Positions 21,185 through 27,745 of a DNA stretch of 36,720 bases are shown in pieces. Numbering within the stretch: position 1 is the first letter of the stretch; the number at the start of each line of letters is the position of its first letter. Source of the DNA: Gammaproteobacteria bacterium (GTDB taxonomy: Bacteria > Pseudomonadota > Gammaproteobacteria > GCA-001735895); the NCBI GenBank assembly GCA_029882955.1, contig JAOUJX010000001.1, forward strand, positions 1-36,720, read 5' to 3'. The notes under the pieces are model-generated. The model saw only the letters and a program-made list of their open reading frames with translations. It was not told the origin of the DNA and ran no database searches. A program made the position numbers and the translations under genes.

Positions 21185-22576
21185 ATGCCGGCTGAAAAAT
21201 CATCATTGAGAAACCAGGTGCCGCAAGGAGCCGAGGGCGATGTTAACAGCTCACCCTATCGCCGCGATTGGCAGTCCGGGAGAATCAATGCCGAAGCTCG
21301 CGTTATACTCGATAAAGATTCCCGCTATTTTCTGCGCCAGTCGGTGTCGACACCCTGTTTAAATACGATTAAAAAGGCGGAGGGAATCTGGATAGAAGAT
21401 CATTCTGGCAAGCGTTACATGGATTTTCATGGCAATAACGTACATCATATTGGCTACTCCCACCCTCGATTAATCGAAGCTATTAACCGACAAATGCAGA
21501 CTTTGTCATTCGCACCCAGGCGTTATGCCTGCGATGTTGCTGCGGAACTGGCCGAGAAACTCGCAGATATATCCCCGGGTAGTTTATCGAAACTACTGTT
21601 TACTACAGGAGGTTCGGACGCCATTGAAGTCGCTTTGAAAATGGCCCGGACTGCTACCGGACGATTTAAAACTATTTCATTCTGGGATTCGTTTCATGGT
21701 GCCGGGTTCGGTGCCAGCAGTGTCGGCGGTGAAGAAATGTTTCGTGGCGGATCAATTGGGCCGTTATTACCGGGAACTGAGCATGTGCCGCCGTTTGGCG
21801 ATTATAGAAATGCCTGGGGCGTGCGCGAAGGCAGTGCCGATCTTTGCGCGCGTCAGATTCGATACGTGCTGGAAAAGGAAGGCGATGTTAGTGCGGTCAT
21901 AGCCGAGCCGAGTCGAGCAGTGCCCTACATCGCTGCACCGGGTTTCTGGCAGCAGGTTCGGGAGGCCTGCAACGAGTTTGGTGCATTGTTGATCTTTGAC
22001 GAAATTCCTACCGGTCTCGGCAAGACTGGAAAGCTATTTGCCTGTGATCACGACGAAGTGGTGCCTGATATTCTTGTGATAGGCAAAAGTCTCGGTGGCG
22101 GTATTTTGCCCATCGCCAGTGTGATCTGTAAGCCCGAACTCGATGTTGCCGAACATTACGCCTACGGACATTATACGCACGAGAAAAATCCGGTAACCAC
22201 GCGCGCCGCATTAACCACAATTGAAATTATCGAAGACGAGGGCCTGGTCGAAAATGCTGCTGTCGTGGGTCAGTACGCCCTGCAACGATTAGAGGAAATG
22301 ATGGAGAGCCATCCTCTTATCGGCGATGTTCGTGGCAGGGGTTTTCTATTCGGTGTTGAGCTGGTGACCGACCGCGATAGTCGTGAGCCAGCAAATGATG
22401 CTGCAGATCGAGTGCTTTATCGTGCACTGGATAAAGGCCTGAGTTTTAAAACGACCATGGGCAATGTATTAACATTTACACCATCGTTAATCACCACGCA
22501 AAGTGATATGGCCTTTGCGCTTAATGTAATTGATGAATCTCTGGGCGAAGTTGAAAATGAGCTAGGCTTCAACTGA
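21185..22576 (+). CDS. class-III (aspartate aminotransferase-family) PLP-dependent aminotransferase, substrate unknown
   Basis: TTGGSDAIEVALKMAR, DEIPTGLGKTG and the PLP-lysine context VIGKSLGGG. ATG at 21185. There is no pathway context in the window. Confidence 0.85.
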   Translation: MPAEKSSLRNQVPQGAEGDVNSSPYRRDWQSGRINAEARVILDKDSRYFLRQSVSTPCLNTIKKAEGIWIEDHSGKRYMDFHGNNVHHIGYSHPRLIEAINRQMQTLSFAPRRYACDVAAELAEKLADISPGSLSKLLFTTGGSDAIEVALKMARTATGRFKTISFWDSFHGAGFGASSVGGEEMFRGGSIGPLLPGTEHVPPFGDYRNAWGVREGSADLCARQIRYVLEKEGDVSAVIAEPSRAVPYIAAPGFWQQVREACNEFGALLIFDEIPTGLGKTGKLFACDHDEVVPDILVIGKSLGGGILPIASVICKPELDVAEHYAYGHYTHEKNPVTTRAALTTIEIIEDEGLVENAAVVGQYALQRLEEMMESHPLIGDVRGRGFLFGVELVTDRDSREPANDAADRVLYRALDKGLSFKTTMGNVLTFTPSLITTQSDMAFALNVIDESLGEVENELGFN

Positions 22577-23986
22577 TAACGATTGATTAGGGAAAGTGAT
22601 GACAACTCTCAGGCCTGATCCTTTTTCCGGTGTCTCCATGGAAAGCGTAGCCTGGTGTAACTCAACTACCTGTGTGACTATGGATAAGCCGATGCCGCAA
22701 CCTGTTTCCTGATGGTTTTGTAAACGGTAATATCGCTCCAGTACCCGATCACGTTCTTCTTCTGGAATACCGGGGCCGTTGTCTTCGACGATGAGGCGAA
22801 ATTGCCTTTCATCGTTGATCAAACTCAGGCTAATAGCACCACCATCCGGGGTATAAGAAATGGCATTGCTGAGTAAATTTCGAATCAGCAATCGTAGGGA
22901 GGTCTCATCCACCGGGGCAATGACGTGATCGTTATCTGTGATAGACAGCTCGAGATTCTTGTCCTCCGCGATTGGTGCCAGTAAGGCAGTTTCTTCGACC
23001 AGGATCTTACCAATATCGATTCTCTCCAGCTGCTGGCTGAATTTCTCAGGCTCCAGTCGAGCCAGGGCGAGCAGTTGATTGACTAGATGTGTGCTGCGAT
23101 CGATACCCCGCATGACCTGATCGATAGCGGTGATACGATCACTTGCATTGTCGGCTTTGCGGGCCAGCTCGGCATGTAGCTTGACGGCGGAGAGCGGCGT
23201 CCTCAGTTCGTGTGCGGCATCCGATGTGATTCTCTTTTCTCTAGCCAGTGCATTTTTCAACCGGGATAGTAGCTGATTTACCGCCTCGGTAATGGTCTTG
23301 ATCTCAGCGGGTGTATTTGTACTGGTGATTGAGTCTAGTTTATCCGCACTACGCGATTTAATCTGGGAGGTCAGCTTTTGTAGTGGTGCTAGCCCCTGAT
23401 TGATAGCAAACCACATAACTATGGACAGAACCGGCACCAGGATCAGGAATAGTTGGAGCAGACCTTCAGATACTTCTTCGATTAATTCGTTGCGCACATC
23501 GATGCGTTCAGCGGTGATACAACGATACCTGCCATCAATACTGGTTAAGCTGAAAACTCTCCATTCGTAATCCGAGAAGTAATGATCACTAAACCCGCTT
23601 CGTCCGGCACTAATATCGGTGATCGGAAGGTTGGTCGATTTAAGAACCAGGTTTCCGGCGTCATCCCATATCTGAAATCCCAGCTTTGTTTCGTAGACAT
23701 GACCGTTGGCCAATTCTTCATCGTCATCAATATATTCGTCTAATTCAGGGTCGTGGTCCGATTTTAATTTGTTCTGGTCAAGAAATAATTGAATACTGGA
23801 GAGTTCTAAAGGGTTCCTGCCAACCTGCGCCAGGCTAAGAATCAGACGGGCAGAGCGGGATAATTGCGCATCGAATAACTCCTGGGTTTCATGTTGAATT
23901 GTGGCATAACTCATCCAGGATCCGCTGCCGACCAGTATGAAAGTTACCAGTAATAATCGTATTATGAGGATAGTTCGCATCGACAT
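22562..23986 (-). CDS. sensor histidine kinase, QseC/PmrB (BasS)-type
   Basis: TM1, a periplasmic domain of about 140 aa, TM2, H-box AAHELRTPLSAV, N-box LLSNAISYTP, G1 DNGPGIP and G2 GCGIGLSIV. Starts 5 nt after the response-regulator stop. Confidence 0.92.
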   Translation of the reverse strand: MSMRTILIIRLLLVTFILVGSGSWMSYATIQHETQELFDAQLSRSARLILSLAQVGRNPLELSSIQLFLDQNKLKSDHDPELDEYIDDDEELANGHVYETKLGFQIWDDAGNLVLKSTNLPITDISAGRSGFSDHYFSDYEWRVFSLTSIDGRYRCITAERIDVRNELIEEVSEGLLQLFLILVPVLSIVMWFAINQGLAPLQKLTSQIKSRSADKLDSITSTNTPAEIKTITEAVNQLLSRLKNALAREKRITSDAAHELRTPLSAVKLHAELARKADNASDRITAIDQVMRGIDRSTHLVNQLLALARLEPEKFSQQLERIDIGKILVEETALLAPIAEDKNLELSITDNDHVIAPVDETSLRLLIRNLLSNAISYTPDGGAISLSLINDERQFRLIVEDNGPGIPEEERDRVLERYYRLQNHQETGCGIGLSIVTQVVELHQATLSMETPEKGSGLRVVITFPNQSLSVEA

Positions 23987-23991
23987 ATCCG

Positions 23992-24651
23992 CTATTGCCT
24001 CGGTATGGTGTAACCGACGCCGCGGATTGTTTTGATTAAATCGGCACCAAAATATTTGCGCAGATGATGAATATGTACCTCGATAGCATTGCTTTCAATT
24101 TCGTCACCCCAGTTATAGAGTTTATCTTCGAGCTGGGCGCGTGAGAGGACTCGACCACAACTGGAGAGTAATTCTTCGAGTAGTGCAAATTCTCGACGGG
24201 ATAAGCCGATGACTTTCTCATCACGGGTGACGCTGTGGGCAGCAGGGTCGAGAATGATGTTTTTGTAGATAATGCGCTGTTCGGGCAGGCCACGGGAACG
24301 CCTGATTAAGGCGCGCAAGCGAGCACAAAGCTCGTCCAGTTCGAAAGGCTTGACCAGGTAATCGTCGGCACCAGCATCGAGCCCGGCTACCCTGTCTGAT
24401 AACCCGTCCTGTGCGGTTAATATTAAGACGGGTAAAGTGACCCCCTGGCCACGAATCTGTTTAAGCAGGTCAAGCCCGCTTATTTTTGGCAAGCCGATAT
24501 CCAGAATCATACAGTCGTATTCGGTTTCTCTGATTGCAGACAAAGCCGTTTCGCCATTTTTTACCCAGTCGACACTATAATTTTCGTGACCTAGACCGGC
24601 AAATAGCCCCTCACCGAGCAACGAGTCATCTTCTACCAGTAATAGCCGCAC
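23992..24651 (-). CDS. OmpR/PhoB-family response regulator, PmrA/QseB-like
   Basis: Receiver domain (VRLLLVEDD, DCMILDIGLP, LILTAQD, KPF) plus a winged-helix domain (LSRREFALLEEL...IRGVGYTI). The GTG at 24651 gives the canonical (M)RLLLVEDD N-terminus. The ORF-track GTG at 24681 is 16 nt from a putative operator and has no RBS. Confidence 0.9.
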   Translation of the reverse strand: MRLLLVEDDSLLGEGLFAGLGHENYSVDWVKNGETALSAIRETEYDCMILDIGLPKISGLDLLKQIRGQGVTLPVLILTAQDGLSDRVAGLDAGADDYLVKPFELDELCARLRALIRRSRGLPEQRIIYKNIILDPAAHSVTRDEKVIGLSRREFALLEELLSSCGRVLSRAQLEDKLYNWGDEIESNAIEVHIHHLRKYFGADLIKTIRGVGYTIPRQ

Positions 24652-24696
24652 AGAATCGATTCCATATAATATTGGGTACACATTTACCGTTTTAAT

Positions 24697-24804: not shown

Positions 24805-25287
24805 ATGAAATTAATAACGTCTATAGCCAGCCTCATGATGCTGGTATCAGTTAGTTTGAATGTAAGCGCTGCGACCGAAGCACCCAATATTAAATTACCC
24901 GGGCTGAATGGGGAAGTGAACCTGGAAAAGCTTAGAGGCAAGGTCGTTTATCTTGATTTCTGGGCTTCGTGGTGTAAGCCCTGCGCTAAGTCTTTCCCAT
25001 GGATGGAAGAAATGAACAGCGCTTATCGGGCTCAGGGGCTGGAAATAGTCGCGGTAAATCTCGACAAGGATCGCAAGGTGGCTGATGCCTTCCTGAAGAA
25101 ACTCGAAGTAAATTTTAAAATTGCTTACGATGCAGGAGGCGATACGGCAAGCCAGTATAAATTACGCGGTATGCCGAGCAGCTTTCTGATCGGAAGAGAC
25201 GGTAAGTTATATGCCACTCATATTGGTTTTCGCGATAAGGATAAGCCAAAAATTGAACAGGCAATCAAACAGTTACTCAAGCTTTAG
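24805..25287 (+). CDS. periplasmic TlpA/ResA-like thioredoxin-fold thiol:disulfide oxidoreductase
   Basis: Sec signal peptide (…SLNVSA/ATE), redoxin fold with active site FWASWCKPC and a GMPSSFLIGRDGK cis-Pro loop region. Confidence 0.9.
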   Translation: MKLITSIASLMMLVSVSLNVSAATEAPNIKLPGLNGEVNLEKLRGKVVYLDFWASWCKPCAKSFPWMEEMNSAYRAQGLEIVAVNLDKDRKVADAFLKKLEVNFKIAYDAGGDTASQYKLRGMPSSFLIGRDGKLYATHIGFRDKDKPKIEQAIKQLLKL

Positions 25288-25299
25288 TCAGGTTGGTTT

Positions 25300-25512
25300 A
25301 TGCGAACTTTTATTGTAATTTTCATGATGATATTTCTTTCGGCCTGCTCATCTCTGGGTGTACAACCCTGGGATCGAGACTTGCTGGCGAAAGATTCGAT
25401 GCAGCTGGTGCCCGATTATCTGGATAACTTCTTCGACGAGCATATCTACTTTAGCAAGGAGGCCAGCAGCGGTGGTCAGGGTGTTGGCGGCGGAGGTTGC
25501 GGATGCAATTAA
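25300..25512 (+). CDS. DUF4266-type small lipoprotein (70 aa) with C-terminal GGGGCGCN
   Basis: Lipobox FLSAC (Cys16, Ser at +2). Mature sequence QPWDRDLLAKDSM...EHIYFSKEASSGGQGVGGGGCGCN matches my memory of the DUF4266 family, including the terminal Gly-rich CGC motif. Confidence 0.8.
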   Translation: MRTFIVIFMMIFLSACSSLGVQPWDRDLLAKDSMQLVPDYLDNFFDEHIYFSKEASSGGQGVGGGGCGCN

Positions 25513-26807
25513 AAAATATTCGAAAGCAGATGAGTCTGGCGACCTGTGCCCTGTTACAGGCAGCTTCACCAGCTGTGAATGCCGAGGAAAGTGACTGGGA
25601 GATTGACACAGCCATATTATTTTATAGCGAAGACAATGGGCGTGTCAGTGCCATAGAACCGGCGATTTATGCCGGTCGAGAACTGGCCGACGACCAACGT
25701 ATCGATCTCAGACTAGTCGTCGATGCGCTCACGGGTGCCACGCCGAATGGAGCACACCCATCGGCTGTCTCACAAACCTTTACCACACCCTCGGGCGGGA
25801 GCACTTATACCGAAGCACCGGGTGAGTTGCCCCTGGATGATACCTTTAGAGATAGCCGGGTAGCTATCGGTGCCGATTGGGAAGTCGGCCTTGATCGTTT
25901 TTCCAGAGTTACCTGGGGCGGTAACCTGTCGAAGGAATATGACTATCTGTCGCTGGGTGGTAGTGCGACTTACGCGCGAGATTTTAATGACAGGAATACA
26001 ACCTTTACCACAGCATTTGCCTTCAATAACGATACGATTGAACCGGAAGGCGGTATTCCGTCGGTGTTTCAACCGATGAGGGTTGCGGGTTCCGGCCTCA
26101 ATCGTGAAGGTGCGGATGATGACAAAACGATTACCGATTTCATGCTTGGTGTTACTCAGGTTATTAGCCGCGAAACTATTATGCAGTTGAATTTTAGCTT
26201 CGGTCAGATCGATGGTTATCAAAATGATCCGTTTAAGATTGTGACTGTGGTCGATCCAGCTGACGGTTTACCAGCAGGGTCGGGTTTTTTCGATACGGCA
26301 AGCACCGGAAACCTGCCTTATGTTTACGAGCGCCGCCCGGATACACGTGACCGTAGCGTCATTTATTTCAAAACGGTACATCATTTCGAAGAGGATACGA
26401 TCAACTTTTCCTATCGTTATTACAACGACGACTGGGAAGTAACATCGCATACCCTGGATTTACGTTATCGTTACGAACTTGGAAATAGCTATTTACAGCC
26501 CCATGTTCGATTTTACCGGCAGGACGCTGCCGAATTCTATACGCATGATTTGACCCTGGGTACAGATGTCGATCCTGTTTCGGGTGCAGTATCAAGAGAC
26601 TATGCCACTAGCGACTATCGCCTCGCGGAATCAGAGACATTGACGCTCGGCTTAAAATACGGGATGCCTCTAGGCAATGACAGTGAATTATCAATTCGTG
26701 GCGAAGTGATCACTCAGTCCGTGAACGATGGCTCGGTGCGTCCGGGCGAGGAGACGGCTGATCTGGATGCTTTTGTGTTGCAGTTAAACTATTCGCTGCT
26801 CTGGTAG
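25503..26807 (+). CDS. DUF3570-type putative outer-membrane beta-barrel protein with ApbE flavinylation motif
   Basis: The ATG at 25503 has GGAGG 6 nt upstream and overlaps the DUF4266 stop by 10 nt. Signal peptide ...AASPAVNA/EE. Alternating beta-strand pattern and a C-terminal aromatic signal LQLNYSLLW. DALTGAT at residues 76-82 of the ORF-track translation. Confidence 0.82.
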   Translation: MQLKNIRKQMSLATCALLQAASPAVNAEESDWEIDTAILFYSEDNGRVSAIEPAIYAGRELADDQRIDLRLVVDALTGATPNGAHPSAVSQTFTTPSGGSTYTEAPGELPLDDTFRDSRVAIGADWEVGLDRFSRVTWGGNLSKEYDYLSLGGSATYARDFNDRNTTFTTAFAFNNDTIEPEGGIPSVFQPMRVAGSGLNREGADDDKTITDFMLGVTQVISRETIMQLNFSFGQIDGYQNDPFKIVTVVDPADGLPAGSGFFDTASTGNLPYVYERRPDTRDRSVIYFKTVHHFEEDTINFSYRYYNDDWEVTSHTLDLRYRYELGNSYLQPHVRFYRQDAAEFYTHDLTLGTDVDPVSGAVSRDYATSDYRLAESETLTLGLKYGMPLGNDSELSIRGEVITQSVNDGSVRPGEETADLDAFVLQLNYSLLW

Positions 26808-26863
26808 TGAAAAATGTGACTATCCAATAGAATATTCGGGCGTCTACTGCGGCGCCCTTTTTT

Positions 26864-27745
26864 ATGAACGATATTAGATTAAAGCGGGATCCAGATTGTT
26901 GGCGGGGTAGTTTTATAGCCATGGCCAGCCCCTGTGAAGTGTTAATGGAGGTTGACGAAGAAGAGCTGGCGGGTCGAGTACTCGAAACTGTCGTCGATGA
27001 AGCCAGGCGAATCGAAGCTAAATTTAGTCGTTACCGTGATGACAATATCATCGCCAGAATTAATTCGGCGCAAGGCGATTCGGTTACTGTTGATGAGGAA
27101 TCCGCGCGACTACTCGATTTTGCCGACCAGCTTTACCAGATGAGTGACGGTCTGTTTGATATAACTTCAGGTGTATTACGCAAGGTTTGGCGCTTCGATG
27201 GGAGCGATCGAATACCCGGGCCTCGGGCCATCCAGCAAGTTCTGAAAAATGTCGGTTGGCATAAAGTGACCTGGCGGAATAGTCAGATAATATTAGACCA
27301 GGGTATGGAAATCGATCTCGGTGGTTTGGGAAAGGAGTACGCGGTCGATCGATGCATAACGCTGGCGCGTGAATTAACCGATAAAAGTGTCTTAATCAAT
27401 TTTGGAGGTGACCTTGCGGTCAGCTGTCAACGTCAGGGCGGTAAATGCTGGTCGGTCGGTCGATTGGTAACAGGGAGCGACCAGGCTGTTGCTTTGTTCC
27501 AGCTTTTTACAGGTGCAATCGCCACTAGCGGCGACGCTAATCGGTACCTGTTAAAGGACGGCGTCCGCTATAGTCATGTTTTAAATCCCAAATCTGGCTG
27601 GCCGGTTGTGGATGCACCACATACTGTCAGCGTCGCGGCTGCTACCTGCACGGAAGCCGGCATGTTTTCGACATTGGCGATGTTACAGGGCCCTCAGGCG
27701 AGGGAGTTTCTCAGTCTACAGGGTGTGGAGTACTGGGTTAACTAA
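26864..27745 (+). CDS. apbE: ApbE-family FAD:protein FMN transferase (no N-terminal signal peptide)
   Basis: Motifs FDITSG, GGLGKEYAVD, NFGGDLAV, AIATSGDANRY and HVLNPKSGWP are characteristic of ApbE/Ftp. An in-frame TAG at 26828-26830 prevents any N-terminal extension. Confidence 0.9.
   Translation: MNDIRLKRDPDCWRGSFIAMASPCEVLMEVDEEELAGRVLETVVDEARRIEAKFSRYRDDNIIARINSAQGDSVTVDEESARLLDFADQLYQMSDGLFDITSGVLRKVWRFDGSDRIPGPRAIQQVLKNVGWHKVTWRNSQIILDQGMEIDLGGLGKEYAVDRCITLARELTDKSVLINFGGDLAVSCQRQGGKCWSVGRLVTGSDQAVALFQLFTGAIATSGDANRYLLKDGVRYSHVLNPKSGWPVVDAPHTVSVAAATCTEAGMFSTLAMLQGPQAREFLSLQGVEYWVN

Follow-up and report, generated by a model that had tools for sequence, protein, structure and literature searches.

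A signal-less ApbE clade paired with a predicted outer-membrane barrel: flavinylation of DUF3570 may precede its export

The DUF3570 gene cluster and its ApbE

The window analysed here is a stretch of 36,720 nucleotides (nt) from a Gammaproteobacteria bacterium (assembly GCA_029882955.1, contig JAOUJX010000001.1, positions 1 to 36,720). It carries a cluster of four genes, encoding a TlpA/ResA-like redoxin, a small DUF4266 lipoprotein, a DUF3570 protein and an ApbE-family enzyme, which transfers flavin mononucleotide (FMN) from flavin adenine dinucleotide (FAD) to proteins (Table 1). A first-pass annotation of this DNA had named a DUF3570-type protein as the presumed ApbE target, and profile searches found DUF3570 (E=4e-109) beside ApbE together with the redoxin and DUF4266. 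The locus thus has the composition of a DUF3570 flavinylation cluster, with thioredoxin-like, DUF4266, DUF3570 and ApbE genes co-located and a [S/T]GA[S/T] motif in DUF3570. The same four-gene arrangement was found in loci L003, L004, L007-L022 and L024-L029.

Table 1 Features of the DUF3570 cluster in the window (AF2, AlphaFold2)
Feature	Position	Strand	Basis or remark
TlpA/ResA-like periplasmic thiol-disulfide oxidoreductase, Sec signal, first operon gene	24805..25287	+	N-terminus MKLITSIASLMMLVSVSLNVSA
DUF4266 small lipoprotein, C-terminus GGGGCGCN (CxC motif)	25300..25512	+	Pfam PF14086 1.6e-21, lipobox FLSAC
DUF3570 protein, 434 amino acids from ATG 25503, presumed ApbE substrate	25503..26807	+	Pfam PF12094 4.1e-109
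Flavinylation motif D74-A-L-T-G-A-T80, with T80 predicted to carry the FMN	25722..25742	+	Motif scan, strand map
In-frame TAG closing the ApbE reading frame	26828..26830	+	36 nt (12 codons) upstream of ATG
Terminator-like GC hairpin (7 pairs, 6 of them G-C), then T6, abutting the ApbE ATG	26838..26863	+	
ApbE-family FAD:protein FMN transferase, signal-less DUF3570-linked clade (T1)	26864..27745	+	Pfam, PDB, clade, AF2
N-terminal 28 residues of ApbE, hydrophilic	26864..26947	+	Strands 5-8, 13-19, 22-28
Glu158 in GGLGKEYAVD; Gly in other ApbEs (GGIAKGY)	27335..27337	+	Alignment
His238 (SHVLNP), equivalent of the general-base His257 of V. cholerae ApbE; retained	27575..27577	+	Alignment, PMC12052999
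Gly266 (TEAGMFST), at the position of Asp285 (V. cholerae) / Asp301 (FmnB)	27659..27661	+	Alignment to 7esa, 5mgy, 1vrm

The cluster ApbE is a protein of 293 amino acids (aa) with the N-terminus MNDIRLKRDPDCWRGSF (also given as MNDIRLKRDPDCWRGSFIAMASPCEV). The Pfam family ApbE (PF02424) matched residues 33-284 with an E-value of 4.5e-62 and 210.4 bits (cut-off 25.6). The best match in the PDB was Thermotoga TM1553 (4.3e-38), and 12 further ApbE/Ftp structures also matched. Its score against the NCBIfam equivalog NF007774, which represents the classical exported lipoprotein ApbE, was 82.9 bits, below the cut-off of 498.

We found no signal peptide, lipobox or twin-arginine motif in the N-terminal 28 residues of this protein, judged by hydrophobicity, the lack of sequence space and a structural model. 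The maximum 10-residue Kyte-Doolittle mean of its N-terminus was 0.79, compared to 2.4-3.8 in exported ApbEs. For a lipoprotein signal with a lipobox Cys, both a hydrophobic segment and room upstream are missing. The AF2 model (predicted local distance difference test (pLDDT) 89.8, predicted template modelling score (pTM) 0.88) placed beta-strands at residues 5-8, 13-19 and 22-28 with a local pLDDT of 84-94; since the strands begin at residue 5, the N-terminus is part of the fold rather than a signal. Both the missing signal peptide and lipobox and the in-frame TAG that excludes a longer N-terminus, as described in the first-pass annotation, were therefore borne out. The twin-arginine translocation (Tat) route was also rejected, as a twin arginine followed by a hydrophobic stretch was absent from ApbE, DUF3570, DUF4266 and the redoxin.

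The translation start of ApbE was placed at 26864 because W13, G15 and F17, which lie upstream of the internal Met20, were conserved in 45 orthologues. Gene callers placed the start at Met20 (26921) in four of 120 homologues; this alternative was rejected, since residues 6-19 are conserved as protein and modelled as strands.

Absence of an export signal across the ApbE lineage

The absence of an export signal is a trait of the whole lineage to which this ApbE belongs. The 120 closest homologues (63-100% identity) were 274-312 aa long, nearly all of them 293-298 aa, with no space for a signal peptide in any of them, and their N-termini were all hydrophilic, with (D/E)xWRGxFxAMASPCEV conserved near the N-terminus. 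In a survey for DUF3570 (PF12094), 28 out of 400 genomes of the same phylum were positive, and ApbE adjoined DUF3570 in 25 clusters from ~20 proteobacterial genera, mostly directly downstream. The orthologues in equivalent clusters, which the first-pass annotation had singled out for comparison, were assessed by hydrophobicity and reading frame, and all 25 cluster ApbEs were signal-less: the stop-to-stop frame upstream of the first strand either left no room for a signal peptide or was hydrophilic where it was longer. Upstream stops were located within 5-45 codons of the first strand, and just 5 codons before it in L015 and L017. The 10-residue hydropathy maxima of the cluster ApbEs were mostly below 1.5, compared to 2.4-3.8 for other ApbEs of the same genomes, which mostly had hydrophobic N-termini, many with lipoboxes (LLSACQ, LTACD, LLSGCF, VLAGCE).

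Distant representatives were collected by a profile search of 1.84 billion cluster representatives (50%-identity clusters), from which the best 150 hits were taken. Among the 141 that were matched at the N-terminus, 138 started within -19 to +29 residues of the window numbering and so had no space for a signal peptide, and the N-terminal hydropathy maximum was ≤1.41 in 137. Some ApbE paralogues outside the DUF3570-linked clade also had no obvious signal; these were found in L058, L068, L072 and L073 (genomes G055, G039 and G067) and contained 2-4 cysteines.

A distinct ApbE clade with a modified active site

In a maximum-likelihood tree of 62 ApbEs, the 25 cluster ApbEs formed a single clade (Shimodaira-Hasegawa-like approximate likelihood ratio test, SH-aLRT, 99). 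Low cysteine content is typical of proteins in the oxidising periplasm. The catalytic cores of the clade contained a median of 5 cysteines, compared to 0-1 in the other, mostly exported ApbEs (p = 9e-10, Mann-Whitney test), and the window ApbE had 7. This composition argues for a cytoplasmic, reducing location.

The clade also differed from other ApbEs at the active site, where the conserved residues are Ser241, His257 and Asp285 in V. cholerae numbering (PMC12052999). Ser222 (ATSGD) and His238 are both present in the cluster ApbE. At the position of the triad Asp, Gly was found in all 25 clade sequences and Asp in nearly all others (xADALST to xAGxxST). The Gly of GGxxKGY was replaced by Glu (GGxxKEY), with K-E-[YFHW] carried by 138 of the 150 distant representatives. 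The Glu158/Gly266 pair may represent a relocated carboxylate, with a somewhat different active-site chemistry.

Taken together, we lean towards the view that the signal-less DUF3570-linked ApbEs are a distinct, ancient clade that is dedicated to DUF3570 and stays in the cytoplasm.

DUF3570 as a predicted outer-membrane barrel substrate

The AF2 model of DUF3570 (pLDDT 85.4, pTM 0.82) contained 16 long strands following a disordered or helical signal region (residues 1-30), with connections of 2-5 residues alternating with loops, five of them long, as is canonical for outer-membrane proteins. A Foldseek search with this model retrieved only outer-membrane barrels with E-values of ~1e-11 (OmpG, FadL, OmpK36, BcsC, AlgE, PelB). 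The N-terminal signal was conserved (MQLKNIKxxxSLATCxLLQxAxPxxQA), and all DUF3570 orthologues had a signal-like N-terminus and an aromatic C-terminal residue. DUF3570 is therefore predicted to be a Sec-exported 16-strand outer-membrane beta-barrel.

Outer-membrane proteins are normally completed in the cytoplasm, held unfolded for SecA/SecYEG, and cross the inner membrane unfolded. Because DUF3570 models as an outer-membrane beta-barrel, it would cross the inner membrane unfolded in any case. The argument in the first-pass annotation that a folded, pre-flavinylated target could not be exported by Sec thus loses its premise.

The flavinylation motif, as defined in PMC12052999 and PMC8238504, was found at one place in the window DUF3570. 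Within 61 DUF3570 orthologues, D74, L76, T77, G78 and A79 were invariant (D74-x-L-T-G-A-T/S80). In the strand map of the model, T80 is at the end of strand 3, where it opens the long loop L2, and strand parity and loop lengths suggest that it would lie on the extracellular or lumen end of this strand. Other DUF3570 subfamilies have a second motif 11-20 residues further along the chain, which by its position would fall in the loop L2 stretch of the window model. In the window protein, residues 95-101 (TPSGGST, 25785-25805), of which T95, P96, S97 and G98 are invariant, are placed like the second SGA[ST] of these subfamilies, and have the look of a second flavinylation site that has degenerated. 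DUF3570 proteins of 912-923 aa, with a C-terminal extension of ~360 aa that had no Pfam match, were found in genomes G159 and G183 (L012:6890-9625 and L013).

Two types of ApbE among genomes

A search for further apbE copies in the genome of the window, as suggested by the first-pass annotation, found one, a lipoprotein ApbE on contig C180 (lipobox LLLSGC, MHRTAHLCLTGLLLYGALLLSGC). The genome also encodes four FMN_bind proteins. One is a membrane protein resembling NosR/NapH; size, which is RnfG/NqrC-like, was the criterion for the other three.

Other genomes contained only the signal-less type. In G159 (one contig) and G331, both 100% complete, the signal-less cluster ApbE was the only ApbE, and neither genome had any FMN_bind or NqrB/RnfD protein. 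G159, G331 and G401 keep DUF3570 with its motif. In G183, which belongs to the same genus as G159, nqr/rnf genes were present with their own signal-bearing second ApbE beside that operon. In another phylum, the verrucomicrobial Methylacidiphilales metagenome-assembled genome (MAG) GCA_030054035.1 (G401) had a signal-less protein with the clade signature as its only ApbE, and its redoxin-DUF3570 pair was located on a different contig. In this MAG, the ApbE gene (L078) is flanked by genes encoding an ATP sulfurylase on one side and, on the other, a lipoprotein of 998 aa with weak Big-domain hits, and no DUF4266 open reading frame was seen between the redoxin and DUF3570 (L078, L079).

These patterns indicate that the two ApbE types track their own substrates, and that the signal-less ApbE and DUF3570 are the only flavinylation pair in some cells. 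The first-pass annotation had offered an exported ApbE elsewhere in the genome as one solution. Such an enzyme does exist on C180, but it cannot be the general answer because G159, G331 and G401 have only the signal-less type. The suggestion of another cytoplasmic target found no support, since FMN_bind and NqrB/RnfD proteins are missing from G159 and G331.

Proposed flavinylation before export and its alternatives

We slightly favour the view that DUF3570 receives its flavin from the cluster ApbE as an unfolded cytoplasmic precursor, before Sec exports it. Out of the four explanations proposed in the first-pass annotation, flavinylation before export was the best supported, given the clade-wide lack of a signal and the genomes in which this ApbE is the only one. 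In this mechanism, the DUF3570 precursor would be made in the cytoplasm and held unfolded for post-translational export by SecA/SecYEG. Before or during threading, the signal-less ApbE would use cytoplasmic FAD, recognise the linear motif D-x-L-T-G-A-T, and attach FMN to Thr80 via a phosphoester bond. The unfolded chain with one FMN would then pass SecYEG, and the beta-barrel assembly machinery (BAM) would fold the 16-strand barrel, leaving the flavin where strand 3 ends on the extracellular or lumen side. As FMN transfer would take place in the cytoplasm, FAD would not be needed in the periplasm. T80 would be out of reach of a periplasmic enzyme in the closed barrel. The compartment of the enzyme in vivo, the timing of the reaction relative to export and the Sec passage of the flavinylated chain are what we infer, and we consider them somewhat probable. 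The chances appear even that an FMN-loaded barrel precursor passes SecYEG and BAM and so places the flavin at the outer face or in the lumen, with neither a periplasmic FAD supply nor a periplasmic transferase.

Several published results are consistent with individual steps. A Chlorobium luteolum DUF3570 stripped of its signal peptide received flavin from its cognate ApbE inside the E. coli cytoplasm and was recovered from inclusion bodies (PMC8238504); the window DUF3570 carries the invariant motif DALTGAT, and published activity is confined to the C. luteolum pair (PMC8238504). ApbE accepts tags of 7 residues (PMC12052999). SecYEG is described as passing proOmpA with a cross-linked loop, and the Sec pore as having been probed with conjugated preproteins in a cited study (PMC6028853, citing Tani 1991 and Bonardi 2011). 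Sec substrates such as autotransporters and TpsA proteins receive their sugars in the cytoplasm, prior to export, and the TpsA enzymes are co-transcribed with their substrates (PMC8151025).

A number of points weigh against cytoplasmic flavinylation. We know of no flavinylated protein that passes Sec. Both the location of the ApbE and the timing of the reaction are themselves something we infer, and the membrane side of T80 was assigned from strand parity in a predicted model. The contrasts in cysteine content and signals come from one clade and thus represent one evolutionary event, long maintained. The clade is without the Asp of the proposed Asp-Ser-His triad, and its chemistry may therefore differ. 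The lipoprotein ApbE of the window genome could in principle act on a periplasmic folding intermediate. The ApbE of the C. luteolum test may lie outside the signal-less clade. Compartment does matter for classical substrates, as a cytosolic ApbE failed to substitute for the periplasmic enzyme of Salmonella (PMC12052999). In addition, a DUF3570-ApbE fusion (P0250, below), if real, would carry the ApbE domain to the periplasm.

The existence of a second ApbE with a classical lipobox raises a division of labour, in which the C180 enzyme flavinylates unfolded, chaperone-bound DUF3570 in the periplasm and the cluster ApbE has another cytoplasmic role, for example on an unknown target, in the handling of FAD/FMN or as a holdase of the precursor. 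The short common motif recognised by ApbEs (PMC12052999) and the missing triad Asp of the cluster ApbE would agree with this. However, G159, G331 and G401 retain the DUF3570 motif with a signal-less ApbE only, and 25 clusters show a tight linkage of the clade to DUF3570, with reading frames that often abut or overlap. A cognate cluster ApbE flavinylates DUF3570 (PMC8238504), and among the FMN_bind proteins of the window genome (one of four read, three judged by size) there was no cytoplasmic target. We regard such a division of labour as unlikely. It is less likely still that the cluster ApbE reaches the periplasm without an N-terminal signal, by hitch-hiking, an internal signal or a rare fusion to DUF3570, and acts there. 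The characterised ApbEs whose targets are extracytosolic all work outside the cytoplasm (PMC12052999), and one 717-aa metagenomic DUF3570-ApbE fusion of this type was found. On the other hand, the ApbE fold includes the N-terminus, none of the cluster partners carries a twin-arginine signal, and exported ApbEs do not share the cysteine-rich core. T80 would be out of periplasmic reach after barrel closure, and the fusion, a singleton known from one contig, reads like a lost stop codon. Nothing supported the non-classical ApbE export considered in the first-pass annotation.

Finally, the gene might have lost its 5' end through a frameshift, a misassigned start or an error in sequencing or assembly, with a signal in the true protein. 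The window comes from a fragmented assembly of 596 contigs, which is all that speaks for such an artefact, whereas hundreds of independent sequences share the architecture, as do complete genomes, and the 19 N-terminal residues are conserved as protein. This explanation is extremely improbable; a sequencing error or 5' truncation was rejected, and the hidden signal that the first-pass annotation had allowed for was ruled out by conservation across the ApbE family.

The fusion P0250 is a 717-aa singleton from an ENA metagenome, in which the DUF3570 frame continues, after the terminal ...VLLF of the barrel, into an ApbE that belongs to the signal-less clade. Its sequence indicates that it probably arose from a lost stop codon. 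A read-through or frameshift fusion of DUF3570 and ApbE in the window itself was rejected, as a TAG and then a TGA follow the DUF3570 frame and the two genes are in different frames.

Gene overlap, expression and neighbouring genes

The DUF3570 ATG (25503) is embedded in the last codons of DUF4266 (C-G-C-N-stop, 25497-25512). As a consequence of this overlap, the MQLK N-terminus and an out-of-frame upstream 'RLRMQL' recur in distant loci, and the position of the ATG inside the DUF4266 end implies translational coupling. The gap before the ApbE ATG is 56 nt and contains the hairpin listed in Table 1, and no Shine-Dalgarno sequence was visible before the ATG. Together, these suggest that ApbE is expressed at a much lower level than its substrate. 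The hairpin was not conserved in the two closest relatives, L003 (21-nt gap) and L004.

The redoxin gene matched Pfam Redoxin (3.3e-24) and AhpC-TSA (6.9e-23), and its NCBIfam ResA-like score was below the cut-off. A divergent two-component system on the minus strand (22562-24681), consisting of a 2CSK_N/HisKA sensor kinase and an OmpR-type regulator, adjoins the operon and is likely its regulator.

A second kind of locus was found in L037-L040 and L033 (genomes G373, G007, G019, G349 and G175), with a weaker DUF3570 paralogue, a redoxin and DUF4266. L037 additionally encoded two OMP_b-brl proteins, a 908-aa HZS_alpha/PD40 propeller protein and a Laminin_G_3 protein. A signal-bearing ApbE of a different clade was located nearby, at a distance of 6-12 kb in L037-L040. 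Some of the DUF3570 paralogues in loci of this kind were without the SGA[ST] motif.

Significance

ApbE flavinylation is regarded as an extracytosolic step, and the route by which FAD reaches the periplasm is an unsolved question. The signal-less clade and its barrel substrate imply a different order, with the cofactor first and export second, and raise the testable question of the order in which the cofactor is attached and the protein exported. If cytoplasmic flavinylation of DUF3570 is true, the Sec/BAM route carries a flavinylated chain, which would explain how a flavin comes to lie on the far side of such a barrel in the outer membrane. Besides Tat export and periplasmic maturation, cytoplasmic flavinylation would represent a third route to equip an exported redox protein with a cofactor, and would provide a simple heterologous test system, made up of an E. 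coli apbE deletion, pre-DUF3570 and its ApbE, for the widespread, uncharacterised DUF3570 redox module. Surveys that filter ApbEs by signal peptide miss or misplace the signal-less clade.

The cluster itself is already known, as is DUF3570 flavinylation (PMC8238504), and so are cytoplasmic ApbEs for cytoplasmic targets (PMC12052999). What appears to be new is the pairing of a signal-less ApbE clade with a predicted outer-membrane barrel substrate, and the attachment of a flavin inside the cell before export of an outer-membrane target has probably not been described previously for ApbE flavinylation. A literature search linking ApbE flavinylation to an outer-membrane barrel found nothing.

Comparison with known systems

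The window cluster has the same four gene families, in the same order, as the 'DsbD systems' of Meheust et al. 2021 (eLife, PMC8238504), and the same [S/T]GA[S/T] flavinylation motif. It is of the kind without a linked DsbD, for which 316 clusters are reported in that study. The DUF3570 subfamily of the window has one motif, whereas the DUF3570 of C. luteolum has two. The DUF3570 system is treated as extracytosolic in PMC8238504, unlike the cytoplasmic flavinylation proposed here. The searchable text of that paper mentions neither a missing ApbE signal nor a DUF3570 barrel ('barrel' does not occur, and 'outer membrane' occurs once, for TonB receptors).

Compared to the classical lipoprotein ApbE/Ftp enzymes (E. 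coli, Salmonella, V. cholerae, T. pallidum; PDB 2o18, 3pnd, 4xdr and others), the clade has the same fold and Pfam family and shares the active-site Ser (TSGD) and His (SH). It differs from them in the absence of a lipobox or signal, Gly in place of Asp285, Glu in place of Gly in GGxxKGY, and 5-7 cysteines compared to 0-1.

Klebsiella pneumoniae has a signal-less cytoplasmic ApbE beside a lipoprotein ApbE, each with its own substrate (PMC12052999), resembling the two ApbEs of the window genome. The cluster ApbE shares the lack of a signal peptide with the Klebsiella type, but its linked substrate is not a cytoplasmic FMN_bind protein: the Klebsiella target is a soluble cytoplasmic fumarate reductase with FMN_bind, whereas the window target is a predicted outer-membrane barrel with a Sec signal and without FMN_bind.

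The closest parallel in logic comes from type V glycosylation, where signal-less enzymes, the HMW1C/EtpC N-glycosyltransferases and the Aah/TibC heptosyltransferases, modify a Sec substrate destined for the outer membrane while it is in the cytoplasm (PMC8151025). HMW1C/EtpC are co-transcribed with the substrate gene, the same logic as we propose for ApbE and DUF3570. In these systems sugars are attached to Asn, Ser or Thr of the passenger domain, whereas in DUF3570 an FMN phosphoester would be formed on a Thr of the barrel. The enzymes belong to different families, and the likeness is functional only.

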